Shown: positions 6,705 through 58,211 of the stretch, one piece after another | Position numbering within the stretch: the first letter of the stretch is position 1 | How the letters are laid out: every line of letters begins with the position of its first letter | Source: an uncultured Candidatus Saccharibacteria bacterium | GTDB taxonomy: Bacteria > Patescibacteriota > Dojkabacteria > J137 | Reading direction: 5' to 3' | NCBI GenBank assembly: GCA_965230975.1 | Contig: OZ246402.1 | Coordinates: 573,009-637,008 of the forward strand | DNA: 64,000 nucleotides | Notes under the pieces: generated by a model | Seen by the model: the letters and a program-made list of their open reading frames with translations, nothing else | What the model was told of the DNA's origin: nothing | The model's database searches: none | Made by a program: the position numbers and the translations under genes

Positions 6705-7166
6705 ATGGATAGATCATACGGCCCAGGGGGGATGCAAATTTCTAGACATTGGAGATTAAACAGTCAAAGATACGGTTTAGAAGGAGTAAGGTATCAAGAT
6801 GGAGGTGTAAGTTTGCAAAATAAAAGAAGTGTTGATTACTTGCCAATTAATCGCATAAAATTCCCAAGCGAGTTAACAGATATAGTTGCTCAAGAATTTA
6901 TGCTGTATCCAGAAGATGTAAAAATCCTATTAAATCTTTTGGCTAAATGCATAGAAAGTGGTTATTCGACTATCGAAGAAATTAGCAAAATGCCTTTCTT
7001 GCAAAGAAGAGGGTTAGATATAAACATTGAAGACTTAATAATTTTTTTAAGCGAGATTGGTATTTTAATGATTAATAATAGTAGTGAAGAAGGTTTGAGA
7101 ATATTGGCAGTTATTAATAATGTAGCGTTATCCGAACTTAGTGAAAATAAGCAGATAGAACCTTAA
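6705..7166 (+). CDS. hypothetical protein, translationally coupled to pepF
   Basis: ORF 6 nt after the pepF stop. Confidence 0.45.
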   Translation: MDRSYGPGGMQISRHWRLNSQRYGLEGVRYQDGGVSLQNKRSVDYLPINRIKFPSELTDIVAQEFMLYPEDVKILLNLLAKCIESGYSTIEEISKMPFLQRRGLDINIEDLIIFLSEIGILMINNSSEEGLRILAVINNVALSELSENKQIEP

Positions 7167-7260
7167 GTTAAAAATTTATTTATTCTAAACCGTTGTCTAA
7201 ATTTAAAGATGATAAGAAGCATTTTTAAAATTGTGAGCCAAATTGAAATTTTGTCATTAA

Positions 7261-7334
7261 GAAATTTCAATTTGTGGGCTAATTTCAAAATTCTCAAGTA
7301 AAAATTTTGAAATTGTAAGAAGTTTGTAAGATTT
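7261..7334. repeat. 74-bp conserved promoter-proximal element, copy 1 (second copy at 24451-24524)
   Basis: About 85% identical by eye to 24451-24524. Contains the hairpin aatttcaaaatt-N10-aattttgaaatt. An 11-bp inverted repeat aattgaaattt/aaatttcaatt sits just upstream at 7241-7272. Lies 35 bp upstream of the ABC ATPase start. Confidence 0.6.
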
Positions 7335-7368: not shown

Positions 7369-8292
7369 ATGATTCAACTAACAGATGTAATTAAAAAGTA
7401 TGGCGAATATACAGCTGTAAACAAACTAAGCTTAAAAATAGATAAAGGTGAAATTATAGGTTTGTTGGGTCCAAACGGTGCTGGTAAATCTACAACAATG
7501 AAAATAATGTCGGGCTATTTAATACCAGATTATGGAACAGTAACGATAGATGGAAAAGATTTTCAAACATCTGATGTAGACTTAAAAAGAATCATAGGCT
7601 ATATGCCAGAAAATAACCCATTATATAAAGAAATGAAGGTTAACGAAGCATTAAGATATGCAGCTGTATTAAACGGTGTAACCAATTTGAAAGATAGAAT
7701 GGATTTTGTAATAAAAGCAACCGCTATAGACGGTGTTTTAAAAAAAACAATAAATGAATTATCTAAAGGTTACAAACAAAGAGTTGGGTTAGCAATTGCA
7801 TTAATCCACGATCCAAAAATATTAATATTAGATGAGCCTACCGAGGGTTTAGACCCAAATCAAAGAAACGAAATTAGAAACTTAATAAAAGATTTAGGGC
7901 AAGAAAGAACTGTAATAATTAGCACACACGTACTTCAAGAGGTAGAAGCAATGTGCAACAGAATAATTATAGTTAATCAAGGTAATGTAGTTTTAGATGA
8001 TTCAAAAGAAAATATTTTAAAAAGAGCAGATTCTAATAGCGAGTTTGTTCTAACTATAAAAGCTTTAGAAAGTGATTTAGCCGATATAGAAAAAGATTCT
8101 AAAATTCACATAATCTCTAAAGAAAAATCAAAAGAAACAATTTCTTATATTCTAGTAGCAGATAATGTAGATGAATTTATCACGCTTGTTAATGTTTTAG
8201 TAAAAAAGAATAAAATATTAATTACAGAACTATCTAGAAAACAAAATAACCTAGAAGAGATATTTAGACAATTAACTATTAAAAATCAATAA
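7369..8292 (+). CDS. ABC transporter ATP-binding protein
   Basis: Walker A GPNGAGKST, signature LSKGYKQRVGLA, Walker B ILILDEPT. Confidence 0.85.
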   Translation: MIQLTDVIKKYGEYTAVNKLSLKIDKGEIIGLLGPNGAGKSTTMKIMSGYLIPDYGTVTIDGKDFQTSDVDLKRIIGYMPENNPLYKEMKVNEALRYAAVLNGVTNLKDRMDFVIKATAIDGVLKKTINELSKGYKQRVGLAIALIHDPKILILDEPTEGLDPNQRNEIRNLIKDLGQERTVIISTHVLQEVEAMCNRIIIVNQGNVVLDDSKENILKRADSNSEFVLTIKALESDLADIEKDSKIHIISKEKSKETISYILVADNVDEFITLVNVLVKKNKILITELSRKQNNLEEIFRQLTIKNQ

Positions 8293-10719: not shown

Positions 10720-11676
10720 CTAGTTTATTCCAAATATTATTGCTACCTCGGTGATTAATAATGCGATATAAAGTCCAGTTAGCATAAAACCTTCGGTTCG
10801 ACTAACTTTTTTACCAGTCCAAGTGGCAACTCCAAACATTATTAAGGTTAATAATAAAATTACAGTGGATGGAATTATTGCTATAAAGCTATCAATTTTA
10901 ACGCCACCCGCCATTATTGCCAGTAATCCTAAAATGCCTGGGTTTACGCATGCGCTTCCAAAAAAATTACCTAAAGCAAGCGCTTCGTTATCTCTATTCT
11001 TTTTTGAAATTGCTAAAATTGTAAGCTCGGGTAAGTTTGTCCCAATTGCTAAAACTAAAACTCCAATAACCGCAGGAGAAATAGAAAGTATTAGTGCCAG
11101 ACTTTCTGCTAGCTTAACAGTCATTGAAGATGAAATTAGAAGCAAAACAATACCAATACTTGCTTTCCCAATAAGTCTAGATAGCTTTTTAATATTAATA
11201 TTTGCATGTTTTTTTAAAGCTACCTGATTAAATTTTCTATTAAGATAAGCAATAAAAATAAAATAACCACCTAATAAAGCAATCCCTTCGGTTATTGAAA
11301 TATACTTATCTAAAATCGAAATTACCATAAAAGTAATGAGTCCAACTCCCATTAAAACCTCTTTCTCTTGAAATCTATTTTTAAATTCTAATTTGCCGTA
11401 CTTAACTGCAGATAAACCAATAACTAAAGTTAAAAGTACTGTTGTAGCACCAATTAAATTCCCAACAGAAAGTTCCGGTAATTCCTGGCTAGAGAGTACA
11501 GATATAGATATCTCGGGTAAAGATGTAATAATGCTTAAAACTACAAACCCAGTAAAAAATTCGCTTACATGAAGTTTCCTAGAAAGAAAAACAAAAGAGC
11601 CTTCTACAAGCTCTGCGGATTTAACTAAAATTAACAAAAAAAATAATAACGCACCAACTATACCTAATACTTCCAT
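10720..11676 (-). CDS. CaCA family cation/Ca2+ exchanger (YrbG-like)
   Basis: Two alpha-repeat motifs (GNLIGATTVLLTL and LAIGTNLPELTILAISKK), 10 predicted TMs. Confidence 0.7.
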   Translation of the reverse strand: MEVLGIVGALLFFLLILVKSAELVEGSFVFLSRKLHVSEFFTGFVVLSIITSLPEISISVLSSQELPELSVGNLIGATTVLLTLVIGLSAVKYGKLEFKNRFQEKEVLMGVGLITFMVISILDKYISITEGIALLGGYFIFIAYLNRKFNQVALKKHANINIKKLSRLIGKASIGIVLLLISSSMTVKLAESLALILSISPAVIGVLVLAIGTNLPELTILAISKKNRDNEALALGNFFGSACVNPGILGLLAIMAGGVKIDSFIAIIPSTVILLLTLIMFGVATWTGKKVSRTEGFMLTGLYIALLITEVAIIFGIN

Positions 11677-24526: not shown

Positions 24527-25573
24527 TTGGTAATATTAAGGTATATGAATACTGTGAATAATTATAACCTTGTTCTGAAAAGTATTAAGGAAAAAATAAT
24601 TGAATCCCAAAGTCGTGCTCTTAGTTCTGTTAATCGTATATTAATAGATCTATACTGGTATATAGGCAAGCTAATCGTCGAAAAACAAAGTAAAGAAGTG
24701 TGGGGTAAGTCCATTGTAGAGCAGTTATCAAAAGACTTGCAATCTGAATTCCCAGGAATAAAAGGGTTCTCGGTTAGAAATCTTTGGAATATGAGAAATT
24801 ATTATTTAAGATATAAAGATAATACAATTCTGCAGACACTGTCTGCAGAAATTTCATGGAGTAGTAATATACTGCTATTGAATAAATGTAGTAACGATAA
24901 GGAGTTGGAATTTTATTTGCAAATGACAAGATCGAATTCTTGGTCTGTAAGGGATTTGGAGTATAGACTTAGGAGTAATGAGTTTGATAATTTTATTCAG
25001 CATCAGAGCAACTTTTCTAGTACGCTTAACTTTAAAGCAAGTAGTTCGATCAAACTTAAGGACGAATATAATTTAGACTTCTTAGGTATAAGGGAAGACT
25101 TTGCAGAAAGAGATTTGGAAAGTCTTATTGTTAAGAAAATTGACGCTTTTATAAAAGAATTTGATTGCAATTTAATGTTTTCTGGTAGGCAAGTCAAACT
25201 AGAGTTTGATGAAGAAGAATTCTTTATAGATCTTCTTTTTTACCATAAACTTTTAAGGTCATATATCGTTATAGAGCTTAAAACAACTCGATTTAAACCT
25301 GAATTTGCCGGAAAGATGTCCTTCTATCTCTCGGCAGTCGAATCAAAATTGAATCAATCCGGTTACGATAACCCTGCAATCGGAATAATTTTATGCAAAG
25401 AAAAGAATAGGAATGTAGTTGATACCACTCTTAAATTTATTACTAGACCTATTGGCGTCGCAACTTTCTCTGTTTATGAAAGAAATACTCCTCTACCATC
25501 AGATATTTCAAAGTATCTACCATTAACCGAAGAGGTAGAAAATAAGCTACTTAAATTGGCAGATATTTATTAA
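24527..25573 (+). CDS. DUF1016/YhcG-like PD-(D/E)XK nuclease family protein
   Basis: C-terminal core FIDLLFYHKLLRSYIVIELKTTRFKPEFAGKMSFYL matches the YhcG pattern. An internal near-perfect palindrome ctgcagaca-c-tgtctgcag lies at 24830-24848. Confidence 0.65.
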   Translation: MVILRYMNTVNNYNLVLKSIKEKIIESQSRALSSVNRILIDLYWYIGKLIVEKQSKEVWGKSIVEQLSKDLQSEFPGIKGFSVRNLWNMRNYYLRYKDNTILQTLSAEISWSSNILLLNKCSNDKELEFYLQMTRSNSWSVRDLEYRLRSNEFDNFIQHQSNFSSTLNFKASSSIKLKDEYNLDFLGIREDFAERDLESLIVKKIDAFIKEFDCNLMFSGRQVKLEFDEEEFFIDLLFYHKLLRSYIVIELKTTRFKPEFAGKMSFYLSAVESKLNQSGYDNPAIGIILCKEKNRNVVDTTLKFITRPIGVATFSVYERNTPLPSDISKYLPLTEEVENKLLKLADIY

Positions 25574-26829
25574 TTCACCCTCAACAAGTGTTCCCAGTTA
25601 GTTGTATATTGAGGGCTGCACATCTCTTTTTTATTCCTCCACGGCTGCTTAAGCCCACTAGACGCATACTTAACAACCTCTCTACCATAAGTCGCATTCA
25701 AGTTATCAAACTGCTTCATCAAACTCATCTTCTTATTATAAGTATCATCACTCTCAAACAAATCTAGCGGAGCCTGAGAATCCGGAACCAAACCAAGCAA
25801 CATAATCGTAGCCTTCTTATACCTAAACCCAGGCTTAAAAATAGAATGCAAAGCAGCAAAACCCGTCTTAATCAAATCCGGATTATAAGCAGTAGGGCAC
25901 TTGGTAGCCACAATCGCATAGTTAAAATACTGAGGCAAATCTTTACGGTGCATATTAGTCTTAATAGACACATACACAAAACTAGCCAAAGAACCTTGCT
26001 CGCGTAATTTTTCTGACCCACGAGTAATATAACTAGAAACCGCCTCTTCTAACCCTTCTATAGTATAAACAGGTTTACCAAACGTACGGGAACTTAAAAT
26101 ATTCTTTCTAGGCGCTTTGGTTTCTAGGTTCAAACAAGGAATCTCTTTTAACTCTGTAGCGATACGTAATTCGGTAACACTAAAGTTCTTTCTAAGCCAC
26201 ATTTCGTTACAATTTTTAAACTGCAAAGCGTTGTAAATACCCAATTCGTTTAGCTTATAGCTTGTCTTTCTACCTACACCCCAAATCTCTTGTACGGGAA
26301 GATCTTTAAGAAATGCGTCCTTATCTTGGACTGAATCCCAGTAAAACACACCACTCTTTGTTTTCTTTTTTGCTACATGATTACAGATTTTTGCTAAAAC
26401 TTTTGTTGGTGCAATACCAACACTGACTGGGATTCCGGTGGATTTTAGAATATCTGTTCTCATTTTGATACCAAAATCAATATAGTCTTTTTTTATATCC
26501 AAACTATCCATTGATAAAAAACTTTCATCAATAGAGTATATTTCCATTTGTGGTACATACGAATTTAGTATACGCATAACTCTATGGGACATATCTCCAT
26601 ACAATTGAAAGTTGGCAGAGAACACCTGAACATTATGAAGTTCTACCATGTTACGTAATTCATGTATTGGAGCACCCATTGGGAGCCCAATATCTTTTGC
26701 TTCTTGAGAACGGGCAATAATGCAACCATCATTATTAGACAAAACAACAATAGGTTTGCCTATTAATTTAGGATTAAAAACTCTTTCACAAGATGCATAA
26801 AAGTTGTTACAGTCTACTAAAGCGTACAT
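25570..26829 (-). CDS. Y-family DNA polymerase (UmuC/DinB-like)
   Basis: N-terminus MYALVDCNNFYASCERVFNP (hVDxDxFFASxE signature); 419 aa. Confidence 0.85.
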   Translation of the reverse strand: MYALVDCNNFYASCERVFNPKLIGKPIVVLSNNDGCIIARSQEAKDIGLPMGAPIHELRNMVELHNVQVFSANFQLYGDMSHRVMRILNSYVPQMEIYSIDESFLSMDSLDIKKDYIDFGIKMRTDILKSTGIPVSVGIAPTKVLAKICNHVAKKKTKSGVFYWDSVQDKDAFLKDLPVQEIWGVGRKTSYKLNELGIYNALQFKNCNEMWLRKNFSVTELRIATELKEIPCLNLETKAPRKNILSSRTFGKPVYTIEGLEEAVSSYITRGSEKLREQGSLASFVYVSIKTNMHRKDLPQYFNYAIVATKCPTAYNPDLIKTGFAALHSIFKPGFRYKKATIMLLGLVPDSQAPLDLFESDDTYNKKMSLMKQFDNLNATYGREVVKYASSGLKQPWRNKKEMCSPQYTTNWEHLLRVN

Positions 26830-27142
26830 GTTTTTTAAGTGCTATAATCCCTATTGTACAAAGTGTATACCAATAAATTTAATAAGTATTTGCATGAGTT
26901 TTTTACTTGGGATAGATCCAACAAAGTTTAGGAATAGATTAAATACAGAAAAATCATTACCAGAAAGTTTTAACTTTGATGGTTTAGAAAATAGAGCATA
27001 TAAAGCATTGTTTGTATTGGTTGATAAACTTAAAACCTTCAAATAAGATTTACCTTTAGAAGAGCGAAGTGATGGATTAAGGCTTAATGGTAAATTTGCC
27101 AACTATAGAGCTATTCATTTCTTAATTCAACAATATTTACAG

Positions 27143-27439
27143 TTGTATATGTATGTTACTCAATTTCAAGAAAAAACCCAGGCTATATTAATTACCTCCT
27201 TTGAACCAGATTATATAGATATAAGAAATGCAATTAGCTTTATTGACTACACTCATATACCAACTAAAAGTAGAGATTCAGAATTTTATAATCACACAGT
27301 TTCTATTCAATATTTAATATTCTTAGCAGTAATGCTTTCTATGGGAGTAGATCTAAATGCTTTAAGAGAGAATCTTGTAAGCGTTATAGAAATTTTAGAG
27401 AACCCTGAAAAAAGTCCTAATATCATAGAAGAACCCTAG
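27143..27439 (+). CDS. hypothetical protein
   Basis: ORF only. Confidence 0.4.
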   Translation: MYMYVTQFQEKTQAILITSFEPDYIDIRNAISFIDYTHIPTKSRDSEFYNHTVSIQYLIFLAVMLSMGVDLNALRENLVSVIEILENPEKSPNIIEEP

Positions 27440-27446
27440 TTTCTAA

Positions 27447-27911
27447 TCAAGCCTCTTCTGTACTAATTATAGGCATCAATTGCAGTTGATTATTTTCTAA
27501 TCTAATATCTCCAGAAAAGTATAATTCCCCACTTGGCGATATTATGCCGATGTAGTGAGGTGCACAGCGAATCCCAGAATATCCACCATCAACATAAAAT
27601 ACTACAAATAAATTATTACTTTTAGTTTTGGCATAATTTTGCAGAAGTTTAGTAGCCATGTTAATCGTTACTCCTTGAGGTAAATCAATAATCTTTAAGG
27701 GGTTATCGAATGTCCCATCTCCTCTTACCGTAATATTAAAGCCACCATCTCTATCGTATAAAGAATATACTTCTTTATGTGCATACATTTCGTTTGCTAG
27801 TTTAATTGTTTCTATTGGGTCTATTTCAACTAATGGTGTATCTAATTCAACGAGTGTTCTTCGTAGGTATTCTTCTTCATATATAGTCATACCTGGAATG
27901 GAATTTGACAT
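27447..27911 (-). CDS. hypothetical protein
   Basis: ORF only. Confidence 0.45.
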   Translation of the reverse strand: MSNSIPGMTIYEEEYLRRTLVELDTPLVEIDPIETIKLANEMYAHKEVYSLYDRDGGFNITVRGDGTFDNPLKIIDLPQGVTINMATKLLQNYAKTKSNNLFVVFYVDGGYSGIRCAPHYIGIISPSGELYFSGDIRLENNQLQLMPIISTEEA

Positions 27912-28007
27912 AAACTAAATTTAAAAAATAATGTGGTGATTATAGTTAAGGTTTGAGAAATTGTTAGTGAAGTTGACTTCACTTCATCTATTCGCTAGAC
28001 TTTTGAT

Positions 28008-28679
28008 ATGTTTGACCTCCACTACATTCAACTAAGAACAATAGAAGAACTTTTATTCAAAAAAGAGGCTACTTTTACACAGTTAAATGCTTTAAATTTA
28101 ACTAACGATCACTTTACCTTTCATATAAAGCAATTAATAAAACGAGGTCTTATAGAAAAGGTGGATGATTTATACAAACTTACATCTTCGGGTTTAGAAT
28201 TAGCAGGGCGATTAAATACAAATAAAGGGACTATATATAATCAAGCCAAACTGAGCATATTAGTAGGTATATTTAGAGAAAACAATGGAACCTTAGAGGT
28301 CCTACTATCTAAAAGAAAACGAGACCAATCAATTGGAAAAATTGCTTGGCATACTACAAAAGTAGATATTGGAGAACTATTAAAAGATTCAGCTAATAGA
28401 TGTTTAAAAAACGAGACCGGATTAACTGGAAACCCTGAATTTGCAGGAGTAACTCATGTAATTAGAAAAGATGAGAACAATTATGAAATAGATGTGGTAT
28501 TAGTAGATTTTCTTGTATTAAACCCAACTGGAGAATTAATTACAGAAACTCCAGATCAAACTAACTTTTGGATTAGCTATGAAGACGCTTTAAAGTTAGA
28601 CAACACACTTGTTGGAATGAAAGAAAAGCTTGAAGCTTTCAAGAATAGACAAATCACTTTTAACGAATACATAAACTAA
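28008..28679 (+). CDS. winged-helix DNA-binding domain protein with a degenerate Nudix-like C-terminal domain
   Basis: N-terminal wHTH-like segment (TFTQLNALNLTNDHFTFHIKQLIKRGLIEK); C-terminal GELLKDSANRCLKNETGL resembles a degenerate Nudix box. Confidence 0.35.
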   Translation: MFDLHYIQLRTIEELLFKKEATFTQLNALNLTNDHFTFHIKQLIKRGLIEKVDDLYKLTSSGLELAGRLNTNKGTIYNQAKLSILVGIFRENNGTLEVLLSKRKRDQSIGKIAWHTTKVDIGELLKDSANRCLKNETGLTGNPEFAGVTHVIRKDENNYEIDVVLVDFLVLNPTGELITETPDQTNFWISYEDALKLDNTLVGMKEKLEAFKNRQITFNEYIN

Positions 28680-29062
28680 GTTGCGTGAATAACATAAGTT
28701 ACAACACCCCAAATTTGATTCCCTTCCGCTAATTTTATTGGATGGTAGTTTGGGTTTTCTGGGCATAAAAACTCTCCATTTGCGCTTTTAACATACCTCT
28801 TTACCGTAAACTCATTATCTATAACACCAATAACAATATCCCTGTTTTTAGGCTCTTTAGATTTATCTACAATAAGAATATCATTAGGAAAAATCCCAGC
28901 TTTAATCATAGAATCTCCAGAAACCTTTACAAGAAAAGTAGCAGCCGGGTGGGGAATTAAATATTCGTTTAAATCTAAAGACTTATCTAAAAAGTCATCT
29001 GCAGGTGATGGAAATCCGGCTTTAATTGTTGTTAAAAATAACGGTAAAGTTACCATACACAC
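28676..29062 (-). CDS. S24 peptidase, UmuD/LexA C-terminal domain-like (no DNA-binding domain)
   Basis: Ser-Lys dyad context SGDSM...KRY, 128 aa. Confidence 0.75.
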   Translation of the reverse strand: MCMVTLPLFLTTIKAGFPSPADDFLDKSLDLNEYLIPHPAATFLVKVSGDSMIKAGIFPNDILIVDKSKEPKNRDIVIGVIDNEFTVKRYVKSANGEFLCPENPNYHPIKLAEGNQIWGVVTYVIHAT

Positions 29063-29101
29063 ACAATAAGTTAGGGGATACCATTTTTCGCAAGAGTTTT
29101 G

Positions 29102-30313
29102 CTAATCTTTAATATACTTTCTACCTTTAAGTTCTTCTGGAAAGTGCTCTTGATCCACCTTAGCATCTTTAAAGTCGTGAGCATATTTGTAGCCTTTACC
29201 ATAACCAAGCTCTTTCATAAGCTTTGTAGGCGCGTTTCTGATGTGTAATGGAACAGGTAAAGAACCATGTTTATAAACATCTTCTTTTGCGTGGCTAGAA
29301 GCCATATAAGCAGAGTTATCTTTAGGTGCTTTTGCCAAGTAAATTGCCAACTGACACAATGCAACATCGCATTCCGGCCTGCCAAGTTTTTGGCATGTTT
29401 CAAAAATAGTGTTAGCCAAAATAACAGCTTGTGGGTCTGCATTACCAATATCTTCAGATGCAAATCTAAGTAATCGTCTTGCAATGTAAAGAGGATCATC
29501 ACCTGCTTCTAGCATTCTAGTAATCCAATACACAGAGGCATTTGGGTCTGAATCTCTCATGGATTTATGCACAGCAGAAATTATATTGTAATGGTCTTCA
29601 CCTTTTCTTTCGTATTGTAAAAAGTTTTCTACCGTCTTTTTTAAAATATCTTCTGTAATCTTATTATCAACAGAAGCCATCAAAGCGCTTTCTAAAATGT
29701 TAGAAGCACTTCTTAAATCTCCATCACTAGCTTTTGCTATAAATTCTAAAACCTTTTTGCCGGCTTTTACTTCTAACCCTTCTTCTTTAACTTTACTTAT
29801 AAGCTTCTCTAGATAGTCTTGTACCTCTGTAACCGAATGCTTGTTTAGGGTGAATACCCTGCACCTAGAAAGTAAAGCTGGTATTAAACTAAAAGATGGA
29901 TTTTCTGTAGTGGCACCAATTAATGTAATAATTCCTTTTTCTACATAAGGGAGCAGAGCGTCTTGTTGAGATTTATTCCACCTGTGGATTTCGTCTAAAA
30001 ATAATATTGTCCTACTAGGAATTAATTCCATGTTACCGTTCTTTTGGTGAGCCATTGCCTTAACAATAATCTCTTTTAGCTTGTCTTTACCACTCATTAC
30101 TGCAGATAGTTTGTGAAAGTCTGCATGTATTTCTTTAGAGATTATGTAGGCTAGAGTAGTTTTGCCTGTCCCGGGTGGACCCCAAAATATTAAAGAGGGT
30201 AAGTTTTTTGTTTCTATAAATCTTCGAATAGGCATTCCTGGCCCGACTAAATGTTTTTGACCAATGTAGTCATCCAGTTTTGAAGGTCTATATTTTGATG
30301 CAATTGGTTCCAT
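29102..30313 (-). CDS. rarA: replication-associated recombination protein A (AAA+ ATPase)
   Basis: YRPSKLDDYIGQKHL..., Walker A GPPGTGKTT, sensor motifs, MgsA C-terminal domain. Confidence 0.9.
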   Translation of the reverse strand: MEPIASKYRPSKLDDYIGQKHLVGPGMPIRRFIETKNLPSLIFWGPPGTGKTTLAYIISKEIHADFHKLSAVMSGKDKLKEIIVKAMAHQKNGNMELIPSRTILFLDEIHRWNKSQQDALLPYVEKGIITLIGATTENPSFSLIPALLSRCRVFTLNKHSVTEVQDYLEKLISKVKEEGLEVKAGKKVLEFIAKASDGDLRSASNILESALMASVDNKITEDILKKTVENFLQYERKGEDHYNIISAVHKSMRDSDPNASVYWITRMLEAGDDPLYIARRLLRFASEDIGNADPQAVILANTIFETCQKLGRPECDVALCQLAIYLAKAPKDNSAYMASSHAKEDVYKHGSLPVPLHIRNAPTKLMKELGYGKGYKYAHDFKDAKVDQEHFPEELKGRKYIKD

Positions 30314-30368
30314 GAGTTATTAATTCAAAAGTATACTAAGTATAGCTCTAGTATACCGATTGATGATA

Positions 30369-31181
30369 TTAATTTAAGAAGTCTTTAATTGTAAATTGGT
30401 TAGGTTTTGTTTTTTCTAAATCTTCCCACTCAATTGGCAATGAAATAGGCGCACCTTCTCTTGCCCTTGTAGAATAGGCTGCAACGGTTGTTGCTCCTCT
30501 GGAATTTCTTAAATAGTCTATAAATATCTTACCCTTGCGTTGGTCTTTAGTCACAACTGTGGTGTATAAATCGTTTTGTAATGCTAGTTTGTCGGCTATT
30601 TCTTTTGCATAGGCATGAACATAGTCCCAATTCTTTTTTTCTCTCATTGGTGCGATTATATGAAACCCTTTTCCACCTGATGTTTTTAAAGTTGGCTTAA
30701 AACCTCTAGATTCTAACTCTGCTTTTATATCTCGGGCACACTTGTAAACATGTTTAAAATCTAAATCTTCGTCTGGGTCTAAATCAAAAATCATTCTATC
30801 TGGATGTTCATAGTCAGAAAGCCGGCTATTTGTTGTATGAAATTCTAATACGCCAAGATTTAATAGGTAAAGAATGTCATCAATTTGATCTATTTCAATA
30901 TAATAATCAGTATGTCCATCCTTCTCTTTTATTTTTACGCGTTCTATATACTCAGGAAACGATTCTGATGGGTGTTTTTGAACAAATTGAATATCTCCAC
31001 CTAGGCCGTGAGGGCTTCTTATTAATGTTATTGGTCTGTCTTTAAGCTCTTTTAATATTAGTTTTTCTACCTTTAAATAGTAATTTACGAGTTCTAGCTT
31101 GGTTATTTTAGATTTAGGGAAAAGTATTTTACTTGGATGTGTTATTTTTATACTTCTGATTGTTATAAAATCATTGTCCAT
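30369..31181 (-). CDS. stand-alone LigD-type polymerase (primase-polymerase) domain protein
   Basis: ITHPSKILFP..TKLELVNYY..RPITLIRSPHG..FDLDPDEDLDF..KTSGGKGFHI..IDYLRNSRGATTVAAYSTRAREGAPIS matches the NHEJ LigD PolDom pattern. Confidence 0.75.
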   Translation of the reverse strand: MDNDFITIRSIKITHPSKILFPKSKITKLELVNYYLKVEKLILKELKDRPITLIRSPHGLGGDIQFVQKHPSESFPEYIERVKIKEKDGHTDYYIEIDQIDDILYLLNLGVLEFHTTNSRLSDYEHPDRMIFDLDPDEDLDFKHVYKCARDIKAELESRGFKPTLKTSGGKGFHIIAPMREKKNWDYVHAYAKEIADKLALQNDLYTTVVTKDQRKGKIFIDYLRNSRGATTVAAYSTRAREGAPISLPIEWEDLEKTKPNQFTIKDFLN

Positions 31182-50006: not shown

Positions 50007-51266
50007 TTAAATTCCTTCGCGTTTCCATACTTGCCAAACAACCTCTTCTTTTTTTAAGTACATTCGTAGACTCTTAAATAATGCCATGTATTCAATCCAG
50101 TCAAGAAAGTAAAATAGAGGCCATGTAAATGGAAACATTAATATAATTCCAATCCTAGGCTTTTCGTTGCTAAACAAGGCTGTAATTACGTAAGATAAAA
50201 ATATAAATAGAATACCAATGCTTATAGATACAAATTCAAGTGTAATTAAGCTGTAAATTAACAATACAGCTATAGCTATTGGCTCAAAAATAAGTTGTAT
50301 TTCTGTAAATAATGAAAATGGTAGTACAAAATAAGATAAAAAGAAATTGTGTGAATCTTCTGTAGAAAAAAACATTGATTTATACTTTTTAAATGTATCT
50401 AATCTTCCTTTTTTCCATCTAATTCTTTGAGAAATTAATCCTTTTACAGTAGAAGCACCTTCTGTATAGCAAACTACATTTTCTGCATAAGTACATTTGT
50501 ATCCAAAGTATCTAAGTCTCATAGACATTTCTATATCTTCGGTTTTGTTTACAGTATCAAAAAGCCCAATTTTATCAAAAACTTCTCTTCTAAAAGATGC
50601 GCAAGCACCTCCAAAAATATATTCAGCACCAAGTACTGCGTGTGTTCTCTTGTTGTAAAATCCAAAGTAGTATTCTAAGTATTGTGCTAGCCCCAACAAG
50701 GTTTTTGTATTGGTTACTTGTACATTCCCAACAACTCCAAATATTGTTTCATCTCTGTAATATTTCACTAAATTACTTATAGAACCATTTTTAAGTTTTG
50801 AATCCGCATCTATAGTTAAAACTATCTCTCCTTTAGCAAGTTGAATTCCAGTATTTAAAGCAACTCCCTTTCCACCATTTGTCTGATATTTGTAGGTGAT
50901 TTTTTCACCTAGCTCTTTATCTTTATTTTTTAAATCAGAGATGTATTTTTTCATTATTTTATCTGAGTTGTCTGTAGATCCATCGTTAACAACTATTATT
51001 TGTACATTCGAATATCCGTTATATAAGGCTGATTCAACTGTTTTTAAAATTCCAACTTCTTCATTCCAAGCAGGTATTACTACTGACACTAAATAAGGTT
51101 CTGGGTTTTCTAATGAACCATTTTTTTTATATTGCTTTATTAATCTTAATTTTTCTTTAATTGTGTACCACGGAGCTATTACTAAAAAGAGATAATTTTT
51201 AAGTAATACTAGGCTTACAAATAATGCTATTAATGATGTGAATATTATATAGATTGTATTTTCCAT
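50007..51266 (-). CDS. family 2 glycosyltransferase, processive polysaccharide synthase type (PgaC/IcaA-like)
   Basis: N-terminal TMs. Cytoplasmic GT-A domain with VVIPAWNEE, VVNDGSTD, DAD and QRIRW motifs. C-terminal TM cluster. Confidence 0.8.
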   Translation of the reverse strand: MENTIYIIFTSLIALFVSLVLLKNYLFLVIAPWYTIKEKLRLIKQYKKNGSLENPEPYLVSVVIPAWNEEVGILKTVESALYNGYSNVQIIVVNDGSTDNSDKIMKKYISDLKNKDKELGEKITYKYQTNGGKGVALNTGIQLAKGEIVLTIDADSKLKNGSISNLVKYYRDETIFGVVGNVQVTNTKTLLGLAQYLEYYFGFYNKRTHAVLGAEYIFGGACASFRREVFDKIGLFDTVNKTEDIEMSMRLRYFGYKCTYAENVVCYTEGASTVKGLISQRIRWKKGRLDTFKKYKSMFFSTEDSHNFFLSYFVLPFSLFTEIQLIFEPIAIAVLLIYSLITLEFVSISIGILFIFLSYVITALFSNEKPRIGIILMFPFTWPLFYFLDWIEYMALFKSLRMYLKKEEVVWQVWKREGI

Positions 51267-52575: not shown

Positions 52576-52700
52576 TAAATGTAACTTTTAATAAGTATTG
52601 TATTATTTAACAATTTCTTGGGTTAAAGATCAATAGTTTGTATTTTAGTAAGTTTGAAAGTTTGTGGGATACTGGTATAAGTTATTAGTTATCAAATTTT

Positions 52701-52889
52701 ATGGAAGGTTTTAATTGGGGAGTTTTTGACTTTATTATTGGGTTTTCTTTGATTTTTGTTACAGCTTTAGTTTTTTATTTTGTTTCTAAAAAACTAAAAA
52801 TACTAAAACATAAGGTTGTTTTAGGTATAGGTTTATTAGCCATATTATTAGTGGTTTGGGTGGAATTAGCTGTAGGGATTTTTAACTGA
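52701..52889 (+). CDS. small two-TM membrane protein
   Basis: 62 aa with two hydrophobic helices. Confidence 0.35.
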   Translation: MEGFNWGVFDFIIGFSLIFVTALVFYFVSKKLKILKHKVVLGIGLLAILLVVWVELAVGIFN

Positions 52890-52980
52890 TTAAATATTTG
52901 CGGGATTGGATATATATCCTATTGCACATGTCAGTGCATCTATAAATTCATCAATTTGGGTTAGCGTATTTTTAGATTAT

Positions 52981-53727
52981 TTATGCAAGTTTTAAGACCT
53001 TTTTAAGAACCTTGTTATCTGTATTATATTCAACTATTTCAAAACGCCTAAAGTTTAATAGTTTTTCTCTAGAGAATTTAAGTTCAATTTTATAACCATA
53101 TATATTTAATGCTACTTGCCTAAAGTTTTGATCGTATACATTAAAACTTTGTTTTTGGGTTGTTATTTTGTCCCAAAGCTTACTTGTAATTGAGTTTGAT
53201 TTTATTTTAATTATTGAGTCTTGATAAATCTGATCATCTTCTTGGTAGCCCATTTCTGCGTAGAAGAGTTTTAGTTGATTCGCAACAATTTCTTGTAATC
53301 TGAAGATTTTAAATATTGGATTGCTAGCCTGATCTACAATTAAGTTAATTACTGATTGATCAATATATTTATCCCAATCTACTGGAATTAGTTTTTTGAA
53401 ACCATTAGATACAGCAATTAGTCTTTTTCTATCATCAAGTAAGTAGAGTAATCTATTATTAGAGTTTAATAGATCTTGTATTGAATTTTTTGCTAGATTT
53501 ATTTCTTCTTTAGAAGCTGGGTTTTGAGTTTTGCCAATTAGGTAATCGATTTCTTCTTCGTTAAGTTTAAAAACCTCTGCAATTTTTAATACACTTTCTT
53601 TAGTAGGATTTATAATATTATTTTCTATTCTGCTTATAACACCTGCTGATAATCCTGTGAGTACCTCGGCTTCAAGTTGGCTTAAGCCACATCTGTTTCT
53701 AAAGTATTTTAGTCTGGTTCCTAGCAT
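52981..53727 (-). CDS. XRE-family HTH regulator with a C-terminal domain of unknown function
   Basis: N-terminus LKYFRNRCGLSQLEAEVLTGLSAGVISRIENN. Confidence 0.65.
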   Translation of the reverse strand: MLGTRLKYFRNRCGLSQLEAEVLTGLSAGVISRIENNIINPTKESVLKIAEVFKLNEEEIDYLIGKTQNPASKEEINLAKNSIQDLLNSNNRLLYLLDDRKRLIAVSNGFKKLIPVDWDKYIDQSVINLIVDQASNPIFKIFRLQEIVANQLKLFYAEMGYQEDDQIYQDSIIKIKSNSITSKLWDKITTQKQSFNVYDQNFRQVALNIYGYKIELKFSREKLLNFRRFEIVEYNTDNKVLKKVLKLA

Positions 53728-53871
53728 AATGTTTTAGTTTTGAAGTAGGATTTAATTACAATATGAATTTTAGCATGAGTTACAATAAGATCTTTACAAT
53801 GTAGCCATATCAAATCAAATCACACTAGTGTGATATAATGCGTATATACTATTTTATGTAGTTAATTCACA

Positions 53872-54972
53872 ATGTCAATTAATACTGATTTAGAACAAAG
53901 TAATTCGGTTAGACTAATAAGTAGCCAAATTAAAGAGCGTTCTTCAAATGTGGTTTTATACTCTGATTCAGATTTTAAATCTGCCCACAGTATTTATTGC
54001 CCTATAGGATTTGAGTCTGTTGCTGACTATTATGTTGCTCCTTACATGCGTAAGTTTGCAGACATTATCTTTGGTGTCGCACAAAATCCTTCTTATGGAT
54101 ATTCCCCTGAAAAGAATGAAATACATATTTACTTTTCAGAAATGGATTTATATAAAGGAATTTTAGCTTTGTTAGCTAATAATACTCGAGCATTAGAGGG
54201 TATTCTTAAAGCTCTAGAAATAGATCATACTCAAATTGAAGATACTATTTTAAGATACGTAAGGCTTCTCAATAGAATTACCTTTGATAATAAATATAAT
54301 TTGGATAATCAAGATAAACTTTTACTTGAAAGGATGGGTGCTTTTTTTAGTGGCCATCCGGATTTTATAGAATTGATTTTTGGTAATTCTGTAAATTACT
54401 CTGTTTATCATGAGGTAAATCACGCCAGGTTAGATGATTTGTATTTAAATGTAGCATATATTCCAAGATATAATTCTAGTTCTGCAAGAAATGCGATGCA
54501 AGTCAGTTATATAGGGTTTATGGATAAGTTTAATGAAATTGAGACTTATTTAATTGAAAATAATAACTTAACAGATTCCTATATTACTATTCTTCAACTA
54601 ACTAATCATGGTATGTTTAAGATTTTGTTAAGGGATATCTATTCTTATCCAGATAAGATAGATGCATTGTATACAAGTTATCTGGGTTCTTTACAGGAGC
54701 TGTTTAATTTTATGCAATTCGCAATTCTAAAAAAAGATTTAGCTAAAGATGAATTACAAAAGCAATTGATTAGATATTTTTGTGCATATATTGCAGATGT
54801 AATGTTTTTATTCCCTGATAATGCTATTGTTAGAAGATACTTGGATTTGGCAAATTCTTTAGATGCAAATCAAATAAATTTGTTTTTGAAAGAGTTAGTC
54901 GCCCTAATGAATAAGGAGTCGTTTGATAAGTTTGTAGATACTCATTTTAGATGGCTACAAAAAGAGGATTAA
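53872..54972 (+). CDS. hypothetical protein (366 aa)
   Basis: ORF only. Confidence 0.5.
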   Translation: MSINTDLEQSNSVRLISSQIKERSSNVVLYSDSDFKSAHSIYCPIGFESVADYYVAPYMRKFADIIFGVAQNPSYGYSPEKNEIHIYFSEMDLYKGILALLANNTRALEGILKALEIDHTQIEDTILRYVRLLNRITFDNKYNLDNQDKLLLERMGAFFSGHPDFIELIFGNSVNYSVYHEVNHARLDDLYLNVAYIPRYNSSSARNAMQVSYIGFMDKFNEIETYLIENNNLTDSYITILQLTNHGMFKILLRDIYSYPDKIDALYTSYLGSLQELFNFMQFAILKKDLAKDELQKQLIRYFCAYIADVMFLFPDNAIVRRYLDLANSLDANQINLFLKELVALMNKESFDKFVDTHFRWLQKED

Positions 54973-55457
54973 TTTTCGCTATACTGATCAAGTTCCTCCT
55001 GTGTTATAGAAAACATTTGTCTTATCATATCTAGTTGAGATCTTAATACCATAAAATTTATACTGTTAGATTCCATTTCTTCAGCACTTAATATTAAAGG
55101 CATTTCTGGGTTATGTTCTTCGTAATCTGTTCTAATTTCTCCGATATGTGGTATCTTACCTATTTGTTCTATGGTTTTTAAAATTCCACCTGCTAGCCAT
55201 TGTGAGCAGTTTAACGGGCTATTTACATATTCTTCGAGGCTTAAACCTGACCTGATATTTGGATATATTCCAAGTTCTTTAAGATGGTTTAAGACTAGGT
55301 ATATTTTGTTTAGAAGTATTTCTTTATCCATTGGTCTTAAAGGTAGTGTTGGGTCCTCACTATAACTAGTAATGTATGCCATTACTTCTACACATAAATC
55401 TCTTAGCTCTTTACTTTTGTGGTCGCTATTAAAGAAATATTTATCAGGTTTGAACAT
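54969..55457 (-). CDS. hypothetical protein
   Basis: ORF only; convergent 4-nt overlap with the previous gene. Confidence 0.45.
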   Translation of the reverse strand: MFKPDKYFFNSDHKSKELRDLCVEVMAYITSYSEDPTLPLRPMDKEILLNKIYLVLNHLKELGIYPNIRSGLSLEEYVNSPLNCSQWLAGGILKTIEQIGKIPHIGEIRTDYEEHNPEMPLILSAEEMESNSINFMVLRSQLDMIRQMFSITQEELDQYSEN

Positions 55458-55537
55458 GAATTTATTCTCAAAAAATATTGTGTGGATTATATACTATTTT
55501 TCTGAAGTTTAAAGAATTGTACATTTAATTGGCAGAT

Positions 55538-55583
55538 CTCGTAACATTCGACTACATTTCATTTGTCTCATTAACTACGGAGA
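55538..55583. repeat. 48-bp direct repeat, copy A (copy B at 57210-57258)
   Basis: ctcgtaacattcgactacatttcatttgtctcattaactacggag is nearly identical to 57210-57258, with one internal mismatch (t/a). Confidence 0.7.
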
Positions 55584-55709
55584 GCTTCGGATGTTTTTCC
55601 AATTTGACCCGTGGCAAGAAATATTATTGATTGACCAATAGATATTAATTCTACACTCTATAGATTTATTAATAGTGTGTTATGATCTATCATATTTCAT
55701 TCTCAAAGT

Positions 55710-56783
55710 ATGAAACAAATGGTTCATTTAAATGAAAACATGCGTTCTAGTAGAGGCATTGTTAGAATGTTTAATCAAATACCCACACAGGAATTATTAG
55801 AAGCTCTCTCGAAATATCCTGATTTAATACCACCTGGTGCAGAGATTGTAGCAACCAATTTTGGACAGATAAATTTGGTCTACATTGTTAGAGTTCCAGG
55901 TATAAAGATCCCTAAACGAGTAATTATTATACCCAGGCCAGATAAAGAGACAAATCAGGTTGAGCAAGACACAATGGAAGATTTTTACGGTTTAAAAGAA
56001 GTGTATGAATCTTTTGTGGCATTTAAATCTGAAGGTAAGATTCAAGCTACAGCTACCATACCTATACCTAGACCTTTAGGACTTATTTGCTCTCAATTTT
56101 TAACTGTAATGGTTAATGAATTCGCGGGCAGTCAAGAAGGTTATTTTGGTTCTGAAGAAACCTTTCCTGCTTTTGTTTCGGGAGGAACAGGTGGTAATAC
56201 ATATTTAGGTTTATCCTGGATAGTGAACCCAAGTTTCACTAATGAGACAGACTTATTAAGACGTCAGACTACAAGTATTGCTAATAGGTTGACTCATCAT
56301 CTGGGTAACAATGGAATTGATAGTGAATATAGTAGTATCTCTCATGCGATAGCTATCTCTCATATTGAAGCTCTAGTCAAAGTTTGGTTACTTACAGGAA
56401 AATATCCTCTAAAATACTGTCCTTCTGCTGGAGATGGTGTTATGTTAAATAAAGATTATGATTCAAAAAGTCATCCTGACATAGCTAATGTGGATATTAA
56501 TTTAATTACATTAAGAGGCGGACTATCTCGGGTAGTAGATTCGCAAGCTTTTATTCAATTCTTAAGAGGACTAAAGGATAAGCCAATCGTTTATTGCGAT
56601 TTTAAAGGTTCGGATTTAGTCATAGTTCAACCTAATAATGCTAAATTATATGAATACTGGGGAGGAGAGGAAGTTAGTGTTTTTAGTGATAAACAAATTA
56701 GAGAAGGTATTGAAAGGGCATTTATGAATTACTTTGGAAACGATTCTTTGCATTATCTGCAAAGAATTTTGGCTGAAGTATAA
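55710..56783 (+). CDS. hypothetical protein (357 aa), possibly kinase-like fold
   Basis: Gly-rich segment and HPDIANVD segment weakly reminiscent of the APH/protein-kinase-like fold. Not a confident call. Confidence 0.45.
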   Translation: MKQMVHLNENMRSSRGIVRMFNQIPTQELLEALSKYPDLIPPGAEIVATNFGQINLVYIVRVPGIKIPKRVIIIPRPDKETNQVEQDTMEDFYGLKEVYESFVAFKSEGKIQATATIPIPRPLGLICSQFLTVMVNEFAGSQEGYFGSEETFPAFVSGGTGGNTYLGLSWIVNPSFTNETDLLRRQTTSIANRLTHHLGNNGIDSEYSSISHAIAISHIEALVKVWLLTGKYPLKYCPSAGDGVMLNKDYDSKSHPDIANVDINLITLRGGLSRVVDSQAFIQFLRGLKDKPIVYCDFKGSDLVIVQPNNAKLYEYWGGEEVSVFSDKQIREGIERAFMNYFGNDSLHYLQRILAEV

Positions 56784-56808
56784 AAAGCTCTATCAGTTTT
56801 TAATTTTA

Positions 56809-57108
56809 TTAAGCTTCTCTGTCGATTTCTTTATTTCCTAGTTCAGATTCTTGAATGTTTTTAATATCAACAGTTCTTCTAGCTAAGTACAGAGAACCAA
56901 CGCTATGTTGAAGCATTTTAATTAAACCATCAGGAGTATGGCTGCTATCGATTTCACCCTGCCCGTTAATTCCTACATAAATATTCCCATCAGTTTGAAC
57001 AAAATATACTGTATTCTTCTCTATAGCTAGTTTTTTAGCATTCGCAAGTCTTTCTTCATATGTTTCAGGAACAGTTTGATCTATTAAATCCTCAATGTGG
57101 TAGTTCAT
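56809..57108 (-). CDS. hypothetical small protein
   Basis: ORF only. Confidence 0.4.
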   Translation of the reverse strand: MNYHIEDLIDQTVPETYEERLANAKKLAIEKNTVYFVQTDGNIYVGINGQGEIDSSHTPDGLIKMLQHSVGSLYLARRTVDIKNIQESELGNKEIDREA

Positions 57109-57209
57109 TTATATAGGTTTAAAATTTAATAACTGATTATAACGTTGACAAATTATGTGGTCAATATTAGTTTCGAATTTAAGAACGGAGGAGACCAAGT
57201 AGGTCGCTC

Positions 57210-57258
57210 CTCGTAACATTCGACTACATATCATTTGTCTCATTAACTACGGAGGAGA
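57210..57258. repeat. 48-bp direct repeat, copy B
   Basis: See copy A. Flanked by inverted cggaggagac motifs at 57186-57195 and 57249-57259. Confidence 0.7.
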
Positions 57259-57500
57259 CAGGATTCACCCATCCGGGCATCTCAATTTTCTAGAATTCGC
57301 CAAATAGTTTTAAGTAGCTCATTAAGAAAATTAGAGACGAACCTTGTTCTCATCCTGGTTTTCTTTCTTTGCTCAAATTTGCCACAATATACAATTGTGT
57401 CAAACCTGAGAACGGGACACACGGGTCTGGAACCGTAGTCACCACTAAGATTATATCCAAAAATGAGACATTTGAGACATATAAAAAAGGAGTATCAAAT

Positions 57501-58211
57501 TTATGATTCTGGAGTATCGCCAACCAGTAATCTTAATTGGGAGATAATTTGGTCCAATTCCCCATCTTTATTAGAAATATAATTAGAAAATAAATGTCTT
57601 TTTGCAAGAATAGCTCGTGCATTTCTAATTCGACCCTGAAATTCAACCTCACTTTCTCCTCGATCTCTTAGTGAAAGTCTACTTGAAATTACCTCTAAAG
57701 CTTTTTCTACTCCATTCTCACCTTCAATTTCTTCAGTAGTAATAGGACTTATAAAGCAATCATAAATTGGAATATTAAGTCTCTTGAAGATATCTTTCAA
57801 AAGTAGAGCTCCATCAACGTCAATATCTAAGATTAAACGGTTTCCATTGTTCAAAGCCACTAGTATATCATCTAAGCTTGTTCCATAGTATCCTTGCCCA
57901 TATTTACTCCATTCTAATAGCTTATTTTTATTTACTTGGTCTAGGAAGTCACTTTCATCTAAGGAATGATAATTAGATTCATTAGGATTCATACTTTTAG
58001 TCGTCGTTCTATTAACTTTAGTATATCCTCGATTGCTTGCCATAAGTTTTTCAATTATAGAACTTTTACCAACTCCATTAGGGCCAGTAATCAAAATAAC
58101 TTGAAAGTTATGTTCACCTAGGCGTTCAGATAAAGTTAGAAAATTAATCTTATCTACAGTTTGGTTCTGTCCCCATTTATAATTTCTATCTAAGTCCATA
58201 ATTATCATCAA
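57501..58211 (-). CDS. guanylate kinase-like P-loop NMP kinase (divergent)
   Basis: Walker A ITGPNGVGKSS; TTTKSMNPNESNYHSLDESDF...LLEWSKYGQGYYGTS aligns with the guanylate kinase TTRxPRxGE..Y.FvsxxxF...fLEwaevhgnyYGT. Confidence 0.55.
   Translation of the reverse strand: MMIIMDLDRNYKWGQNQTVDKINFLTLSERLGEHNFQVILITGPNGVGKSSIIEKLMASNRGYTKVNRTTTKSMNPNESNYHSLDESDFLDQVNKNKLLEWSKYGQGYYGTSLDDILVALNNGNRLILDIDVDGALLLKDIFKRLNIPIYDCFISPITTEEIEGENGVEKALEVISSRLSLRDRGESEVEFQGRIRNARAILAKRHLFSNYISNKDGELDQIISQLRLLVGDTPES

Follow-up and report, generated by a model that had tools for sequence, protein, structure and literature searches.

A 45-nt direct repeat as a candidate att-type joint between exchangeable modules in a Dojkabacteria genome

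A stretch of 64,000 nucleotides (nt) from an uncultured bacterium of the Dojkabacteria (GenBank assembly GCA_965230975.1, contig OZ246402.1, positions 573,009 to 637,008 of the forward strand; hereafter the window) carries a 45-nt direct repeat, R, on both sides of a 1.7-kb block with two genes. R bounds swappable modules in an island that varies between sister strains, and it is probably the attachment (att)-type joint of a mobile cassette without an integrase of its own. The kind of element is familiar, and what is new is the sequence of the joint, in a little-studied lineage. In the Candidate Phyla Radiation (CPR, Patescibacteria), with its tiny and host-dependent genomes, mobile elements and the mechanisms of gene flux are poorly known. 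The locus presents a concrete, sequence-defined joint for recombination, whose core of 15 nt is invariant and at which Dojkabacteria sister strains exchange small cargo such as an orphan kinase-like enzyme, HExxH proteins, siderophore-synthetase-like genes, and glycosyltransferases. R offers a testable substrate for identifying the recombinase behind strain-level variation in a CPR genome; should plain homologous recombination prove to be the mechanism, the locus would stand as one well-documented example of a hypervariable island.

Repeat R and its copies

The two copies of R, A and B, lie in direct orientation with a start-to-start distance of 1672 nt and are identical at 44 of 45 positions, and their flanks diverge directly after ...ACGGAG. 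They were the sole matches at up to 3 mismatches on both strands of the 64-kb window, and 100 dinucleotide-preserving shuffles of the window yielded 0 comparable repeats. Logan contig L005, from another run, matched the window at 100% over the two copies and what lies between them; the arrangement can therefore not be put down to the assembly of a single record. The features of the locus are as follows.

55538-55582, plus strand: copy A of the repeat, the 45-nt joint alone without the hairpin extension; CTCGTAACATTCGACTACATTTCATTTGTCTCATTAACTACGGAG; identical in contig L001
57210-57254, plus strand: copy B of the repeat, 45 nt; single difference from copy A, T to A at 57229
55541-55555, plus strand: conserved core GTAACATTCGACTAC of copy A, within the inferred crossover zone; 15/15 in contig L002
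57213-57227, plus strand: conserved core GTAACATTCGACTAC of copy B
57185-57209, plus strand: extension of copy B, ACGGAGGAGACC-AAGTA-GGTCGCTC(CTCGT); imperfect hairpin or inverted arm pair
57249-57259, plus strand: second direct copy of motif M, ACGGAGGAGAC, overlapping the last 6 nt of copy B
55583-57184, no strand: module 1, the putative cassette cargo, with a 357-amino-acid (aa) gene, a 99-aa gene and a promoter; 98.4% shared with L001
53780-55537, no strand: module 2, with the genes of a 366-aa HExxH protein and a 162-aa protein; five other open reading frames (ORFs) in L001; absent in L019 and L020
57249-57411, minus strand: S1, 163 nt of non-coding sequence between the conserved flank and copy B; absent from L011
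57412-57500, minus strand: conserved flank downstream of a guanylate-kinase-like operon, ending ...GTGTGTCCCGT; right-hand boundary of the island
52981-53727, minus strand: gene of an XRE-family regulator, 248 aa; left-hand anchor of the variable region

An earlier reading of the same DNA, made from the sequence alone, had described a 48-mer. The direct repeat is real, and its matching stretch is 45 nt long, ending at 55582 and 57254. That reading was right that the copies bracket the 357-aa and 99-aa ORFs (55710-56783, plus strand, and 56809-57108, minus strand) and that about 240 bp after copy B are free of ORFs of at least 60 aa, none being present in 57259-57500. The inverted repeat of cggaggagac which it placed at copy B turned out to be two direct copies of ACGGAGGAGAC, at 57185-57195 and 57249-57259. 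Both occurrences of CGGAGGAGAC thus point the same way, and what lies between them in inverted orientation is only an imperfect partner of M, GGTCGCTCCTCGT at 57202-57214. With these motifs, copy B forms part of a longer unit of 70-75 nt (57185-57259), of which copy A is a truncated version.

On the minus strand, R starts with an M-like ..GTCTCC(TC)CGT, followed by a 34-nt segment with the invariant core GTAGTCGAATGTTAC, the inverted M, a spacer of 5-7 nt, and the direct M. An M-like motif, ...C(T)CCGT, preceded every copy of the 45-mer, and in full copies of R the 45-mer was followed by the inverted and the direct M at this 5-7-nt separation. The extension of copy B accompanies the 99-aa side of the cassette; it was identical at the end of L001, differed by two substitutions in L019 and L020, and was diverged beside copy A of L001. 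Read along the minus strand, the locus begins with the stop of the guanylate-kinase-like gene (57501) and the 89-nt conserved flank down to 57412, continues with S1, which has no ORF and ends ...GTCTCCTCCGT (57411-57249), and then enters the remaining 45-mer AGTTAATGAGACAAATGATATGTAGTCGAATGTTACGAG. The extension GAGCGACC-TACTT-GGTCTCCTCCGT (57209-57185) and module 1, ending ...GAAGCTCTCCGT, come next. Copy A follows, and directly behind it stands unrelated sequence (ATCTGCC...), then module 2, and finally the promoter and coding sequence of the XRE gene.

Several other identities for R were considered and rejected. A structured RNA was set aside with folding z-scores of about -2 or weaker and an alignment energy of -10 kcal/mol; in the alignment of three variants the one predicted pair with a compensatory change lay outside the extension hairpin. 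For an att site at the 3' end of a tRNA or tmRNA gene, or a member of an Rfam family, ARAGORN and Rfam found only a tRNA-Gly (314-385), and a relaxed Rfam scan of 55400-57600 returned chance matches only. A phage att site was rejected with R unmatched in 50,697 phage records and IMG/VR. An island repeat of the Prochlorococcus type was rejected as well: the gene content pointed to Candidatus Dojkabacteria, the label also of the best named RadA homologues (61-66% identity) and of one XRE homologue, and the repeat had no tRNA or Rfam similarity.

Sister strains and a candidate exchange mechanism

The related contigs came from wastewater or freshwater-type metagenomes. In L001 (SRR32414321) the flanks were 99.1% and the XRE gene 94.8% identical to the window at the nucleotide level. 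Past the XRE gene this contig carried 4.1 kb of other cargo (DUF1801, a DUF4287 fragment, and ORFs of 474, 265, and 349 aa), and homology to the window resumed exactly at 55538 and ran at 98.4% to 57210, where the contig ended. To the left of 55538 its sequence was unrelated, with five other ORFs in place of those for the 366-aa and 162-aa proteins. Copy A of L001 equalled that of the window but was then followed by a diverged extension. The 45-mer, module 1, and the extension together make up exactly one repeat period (1,672 bp), and this unit was present in two strain backgrounds with different adjoining sequences on both sides.

L011, from the same sample as L001, had the conserved flank joined directly to a diverged left half, CCCGT|AGTTAAAGAGACAAACGAAGTGTAGT (3 differences in 26 nt), with S1 missing. 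The end of L011 and the start of L001 lie 12 nt apart, and the extension and module 1 with which L001 begins are identical to the window. Copy B of this pair combined the diverged left half with a right half of the window type, and copy A was the reciprocal. These reciprocal hybrids would place the exchange within the 19-20 nt of TGTAGTCGAATGTTACGAG(G), a zone that has stayed invariant even in L002, the relative with 77% identity. The crossovers would map to the strictly conserved core GTAACATTCGACTAC. Logan contigs of the strain of the window (SRR12762303 and SRR12762304) also break around an 18-nt stretch in S1 (57308-57327) although the NCBI genome runs through it without interruption; adjacent Logan contigs can thus be separated by gaps of this kind. 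This break may reflect population heterogeneity.

L019 and L020, from two independent samples, each carried one full R and lacked modules 1 and 2. On one side of their R stood IucA/IucC-like, 310-aa, and hydrolase-like genes; on the other the XRE promoter (window position 53779) followed 14 nt on, with R 66 nt upstream of the XRE start codon. L002 had a 77%-identical 357-aa gene without the 99-aa gene, and this contig started at the end of one repeat-like sequence and ended in another; the core was identical there at 15 of 15 positions and the next 18 nt at only 7. In five further strains (L009, L010, L012, L013, and L014) homology to the window stopped at 57413, compared with 57412 in L011, and at least 8.4 kb of other genes (227-aa, OmdA-like, hydrolase, and several glycosyltransferases) followed without any R. 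Three different sequences begin past the end of the conserved flank in different strains, and the region left of 57413 is a strain-variable island. Across strains the 45-mer was found in four different left and four different right contexts and was the sole element shared at the joints. From these strain-specific joints at the edges of R in sister contigs it follows that R bounds swappable modules.

The sequence-only reading had proposed a small cassette with a duplicated att-like site. Much of this stands, with the unit shared with L001 from 55538 to 57210, single-copy sites in other strains, and no recombinase of its own; a single insertion does not describe the locus, where R is one joint in a module array inside a larger hypervariable island. 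Its suggested search for empty sites gave a mixed outcome, as a single R was found in L019 and L020, where two modules were gone and the far flank also differed. That the copies of R are the leftover of a local tandem duplication or of replication slippage, with no role in mobility, is hardly credible. Just two nearly identical copies near each other would fit it, but the sequences between and around them are mutually unrelated and R is single, or has other neighbours, in four other strain backgrounds, so this explanation is hard to hold and would require all strain variants to be assembly chimeras.

The 45-mer is best read as the common core of an att-type recombination site R. The mobile unit would be 1,672 bp long and consist of one R, the gene with the kinase-like fold, and the optional 99-aa gene, with no recombinase encoded. 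It would arrive as a circle and enter by a single crossover between its own R and a resident R inside TGTAGTCGAATGTTACGAG(G); such a Campbell-type insertion would leave two direct R, each a hybrid of both parents. Repeated insertions and decay would then have built up modules in tandem from the guanylate-kinase-like operon to the XRE gene, and recombination between two direct R would excise the block again. The enzyme would act in trans, most likely as a tyrosine recombinase encoded elsewhere in the genome or on the incoming element. Within this reading a site-specific event is somewhat more likely than RecA acting alone, because the joints are sharp and occur repeatedly, conservation is selective for the core, and the direct and inverted M are placed like binding arms. 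We infer the circular intermediate, the site-specific over the RecA-dependent mechanism, the identity of the enzyme, and the linkage of L011 to L001.

A number of observations weigh against the att-type reading. The junctions of the conserved flank fall at ...CCGT|, outside the core, which calls for a second kind of joint or for later deletions, and copy A of the window is without the extension. None of the strains recovered combined the two flanks of the window with the loss of this block alone; L019 and L020 lack two modules and differ in the far flank, so they do not give the simple case of an empty site between unchanged flanks. L011 is the probable right flank of L001, with the linkage drawn across the 12-nt gap. 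As the sequence-only reading had noted, the window offers no recombinase: no Pfam recombinase, transposase, or integrase domain was present in the scanned ORFs of at least 90 aa (for four ORFs in the operon to the right and for the GT2 gene, 50007-51266, the precomputed Pfam labels of identical Logan contigs were used, and five probably spurious ORFs that overlap longer ones were left out), so no enzyme is tied to R. The census of copies covered about 5% of the approximately 1.19-Mb genome. Finally, an identity of 45 nt suffices for low-frequency RecA recombination, and 45-75 nt could give the same products.

The last point leads to an alternative that we regard as possible but rather unlikely, in which R is kept for another function in cis, as an operon-end or insulator element or an operator, and the modules are swapped by RecA recombination after DNA uptake. 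R would then act only as a short homologous stretch, the XRE gene or the guanylate-kinase-like operon would provide the second arm, and neither a dedicated site-specific system nor a circular cassette would exist. That neither the window nor any of the alternative modules yielded a recombinase agrees with this, as does the XRE gene, which is more diverged between strains (94.8%) than the flank beyond (99.1%), as expected if recombination tracts end there. Five strains have replaced the whole island from 57413 without any R, and on the minus strand R lies 66-81 nt upstream of a gene start in three of four contexts, beyond the predicted promoters. RecA exchange does less well with joints that recur to the nucleotide in independent contexts, and the Campbell-type duplication of R around the 1,672-bp unit would still need a circular intermediate. 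The core kept at 15 of 15 positions in the 77%-identical L002 and an arrangement of direct and inverted M that resembles protein-binding arms also speak for a site, and a cis-acting RNA finds neither a terminator-like T-run at R nor covariation that would back a structure.

It is very unlikely that R belongs to a dispersed, genome-wide repeat family, of the repetitive extragenic palindromic (REP), miniature inverted-repeat transposable element (MITE), or palindrome-associated transposable element (PATE) kind, served by an enzyme of the insertion sequence IS200/IS605 or REP-associated tyrosine transposase (RAYT) type, with two copies 1.7 kb apart by chance. The hairpin in R beside a conserved segment that looks single-strand-like and the several joints directly after CCGT on the minus strand are reminiscent of such elements and of end cleavage by IS200/IS605-type enzymes, and the small share of the genome that was searched leaves room for more copies. 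All copies of R that were seen, however, sit at strain-specific module boundaries of one locus, and no ORF resembling TnpA or RAYT was detected. A search with an nhmmer profile of R added no copies to these, either from the window or from the 26 fetched loci, many of which overlap, and exact-pattern scans found R absent from 185,579 GTDB species genomes and from IMG/VR and the phage records. In 241 million metagenome records of JGI the core had 2 matches, both inside ORFs (contigs with 40 and 51% GC, respectively), about the number expected by chance. The abundant dispersed regulatory repeat that the sequence-only reading had offered as its alternative is not supported by these searches. No R was present near the distant XRE homologues (L022, L023, and L024) or near L025, which carries a 36% homologue of the 357-aa gene. 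A scan of the GTDB genomes with the guanylate-kinase-like protein had as its sole match an unrelated Myxococcales; the strain variants were recovered through exact-protein look-ups, and the DNA search with the repeat recovered none.

A wider form of the att-type reading seems doubtful, namely that R is the recognition site of an undescribed, host-recombinase-dependent system of cassette exchange in CPR bacteria. Small modules without recombinases would be shuffled at one chromosomal hotspot, possibly by the terminus or dif region, and a housekeeping (Xer-like) or unlinked recombinase would act on the GTAGTCGAATGTTAC core and the GTCTCCTCCGT arms.

Genes and other features of the island

The genes of the two modules are as follows.

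55710-56783, plus strand: 357-aa gene of module 1, predicted protein-kinase-like fold
56809-57108, minus strand: 99-aa gene of module 1, with a promoter TTGACC-17-TATAAT at 57136-57164 (minus strand)
53872-54972, plus strand: 366-aa HExxH protein of module 2
54969-55457, minus strand: 162-aa protein of module 2

The genes of module 1 are convergent, and the promoter before the 99-aa gene is near consensus. Neither of their proteins matched Pfam, PADLOC, or PHROGs, and for the 357-aa protein no sequence match was found in Pfam, NCBIfam-type families, or the PDB. Its family is tiny, with 3 homologues among 5.8 billion clustered proteins and 13 cluster representatives among 1.84 billion. An AlphaFold model from an 11-sequence alignment reached a predicted local distance difference test (pLDDT) of 79 and a predicted template-modelling score (pTM) of 0.84, and the single-sequence model, with a pLDDT of 40, was of no use. 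The protein is predicted to adopt a protein-kinase-like fold; weak kinase-like features had been read earlier from its sequence. Its closest group is the protein-kinase-like superfamily (Bud32, Rio, and the aminoglycoside/choline kinase type), from which it differs in that the histidine of the catalytic loop is replaced by alanine. Distant homologues adjoin P450, RidA-like, SDR, NUDIX, and acetyltransferase genes, with no repeats there, and the protein looks like a small-molecule-modifying enzyme and not a mobility factor. Because the predicted fold is kinase-like, the idea that it is a hidden recombinase was dropped. The 99-aa protein had no detectable relatives; in L001 its gene is split by a frameshift (11091-11391), with the first 39 residues 100% and the C-terminal part 84% identical.

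The 366-aa protein of module 2 and the 349-aa protein of L001 (8733-9782) are 35% identical and both carry an HExxH motif (HEVNH and HEFNH, respectively), which suggests an uncharacterised metallopeptidase-like family; neither matched Pfam, PADLOC, PHROGs, or the PDB. Modules 1 and 2 and the alternative modules gave no matches to recombinases, transposases, defence systems, or phages. To the right of the locus a minus-strand operon encodes HAD, PRAI-domain, Ppx/GppA, SDR, 195-aa, PfkB, and guanylate-kinase-like proteins, and to the left lie the XRE-family regulator and glycosyltransferase genes. Next to the XRE gene (52661-52811 and 52954-52979), about 150 nt, with much of a 62-aa ORF (52701-52889), are missing in L001, L019, and L020, and in the latter two NUDIX and NTPase_I-T genes are inserted just past the XRE stop codon.

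Inside S1 a single-copy dif-like palindrome, TTTGACACAAT-TGTATA-TTGTGGCAAAT, lies at 57377-57404 on the minus strand, 7 nt from the junction of the conserved flank. It agrees with the bacterial dif consensus at 21 of 28 positions, and its arms are complementary at 9 of 10. The cumulative GC skew of the window, whose GC content is about 30%, peaks at 54-58 kb; gene orientation converges there, with the minus strand carrying every gene further right (57.5-64 kb and 5.6 kb beyond in L006). This suggests a replication terminus near 54-58 kb, on mixed evidence. Third-codon-position skew shows no switch and the window holds about 30 comparable palindromes, so a connection to the terminus and to Xer is a lead only.

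Elsewhere in the window, three imperfect palindromes with a 41-nt spacing (starts at 7202, 7243, and 7284; span 7202-7310) lie between ORFs 6705-7166 and 7369-8292, upstream of an ABC-transporter ATPase gene. A cluster for DNA-damage tolerance (25570-31181) encodes a UmuC-like polymerase (IMS), a Peptidase_S24 protein (UmuD/LexA-like), MgsA, and a stand-alone LigD primase-polymerase domain protein, and is adjoined by a DUF1016/YhcG nuclease of the PDDEXK type (24527-25573).

Comparison with known systems

Cis-mobilizable elements (CIMEs) that accrete in tandem at att sites, for example those related to ICESt1 in Streptococcus thermophilus, are described in PMC5704250 (citing Pavlovic 2004 and Bellanger 2011). 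The Dojkabacteria block resembles them as an element between direct repeats of the attL/attR type without genes for integration or transfer, in tandem modules separated by copies of the site, and in a mobility that would rely on a recombinase from elsewhere. The direct repeats are 44/45 identical and the edges of the block coincide with those of the repeat in L001, and Pfam, PADLOC, and PHROGs found no integrase, excisionase, or transfer genes inside. In contrast to CIMEs, the block has no sign of an origin from an integrative and conjugative or an integrative and mobilizable element, R, which has no tRNA or Rfam match, does not coincide with the 3' end of a tRNA gene or a protein gene, no cognate integrase is tied to R, the block resides in a CPR genome of about 1.2 Mb, and the unit is only 1.7 kb long.

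Excision and integration were shown experimentally for the 13-kb H47 genomic island of E. coli, which encodes microcin H47, and its authors spoke of a 'parasitic' mobility strategy (PMC3191183, PMC5426353). The block shares with this island the small size, imperfect direct repeats, hybrid attachment sites, the lack of an own recombinase, and a presumed use of functions supplied by the host. It differs in being known from comparative evidence alone, and the two have no sequence relationship.

A looser likeness connects the block with integrative mobile elements exploiting Xer (IMEXs), such as the CTX phage, TLC, and the gonococcal genetic island. IMEXs have no own recombinase, direct copies of the host recombination site at their ends, and tandem arrays, and a dif-like palindrome lies 155 nt from copy B. 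R itself was rejected as a dif site, being unlike the 28-bp (11-6-11) consensus DBBBCSBATAATRTAYATTATGTHAANT.

Integron cassettes and clusters of attC sites lacking integrases (CALIN) share with the locus short modules between site copies of about 60-75 nt, a variable array, and no integrase nearby. R was rejected as an attC site, in which an R''/R' pair (RYYYAAC / GTTRRRY) spaced by 50-140 nt forms an imperfect hairpin; inspection of both strands found no such pair, with GTTACGA and GTTAATG present only as direct copies. In R the 'loop', the central 34 nt, is conserved and the arms of the stem vary, the opposite of attC, and no compensatory change backs the stem. While integron cassettes are mostly promoterless, co-oriented, and of a single ORF after intI, attI, and Pc, the block has two convergent genes, its own promoter, and no intI. 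If the host-recombinase-dependent exchange system considered above did exist, it would be a functional analogue of integrons and IMEX arrays with an unrelated site architecture.

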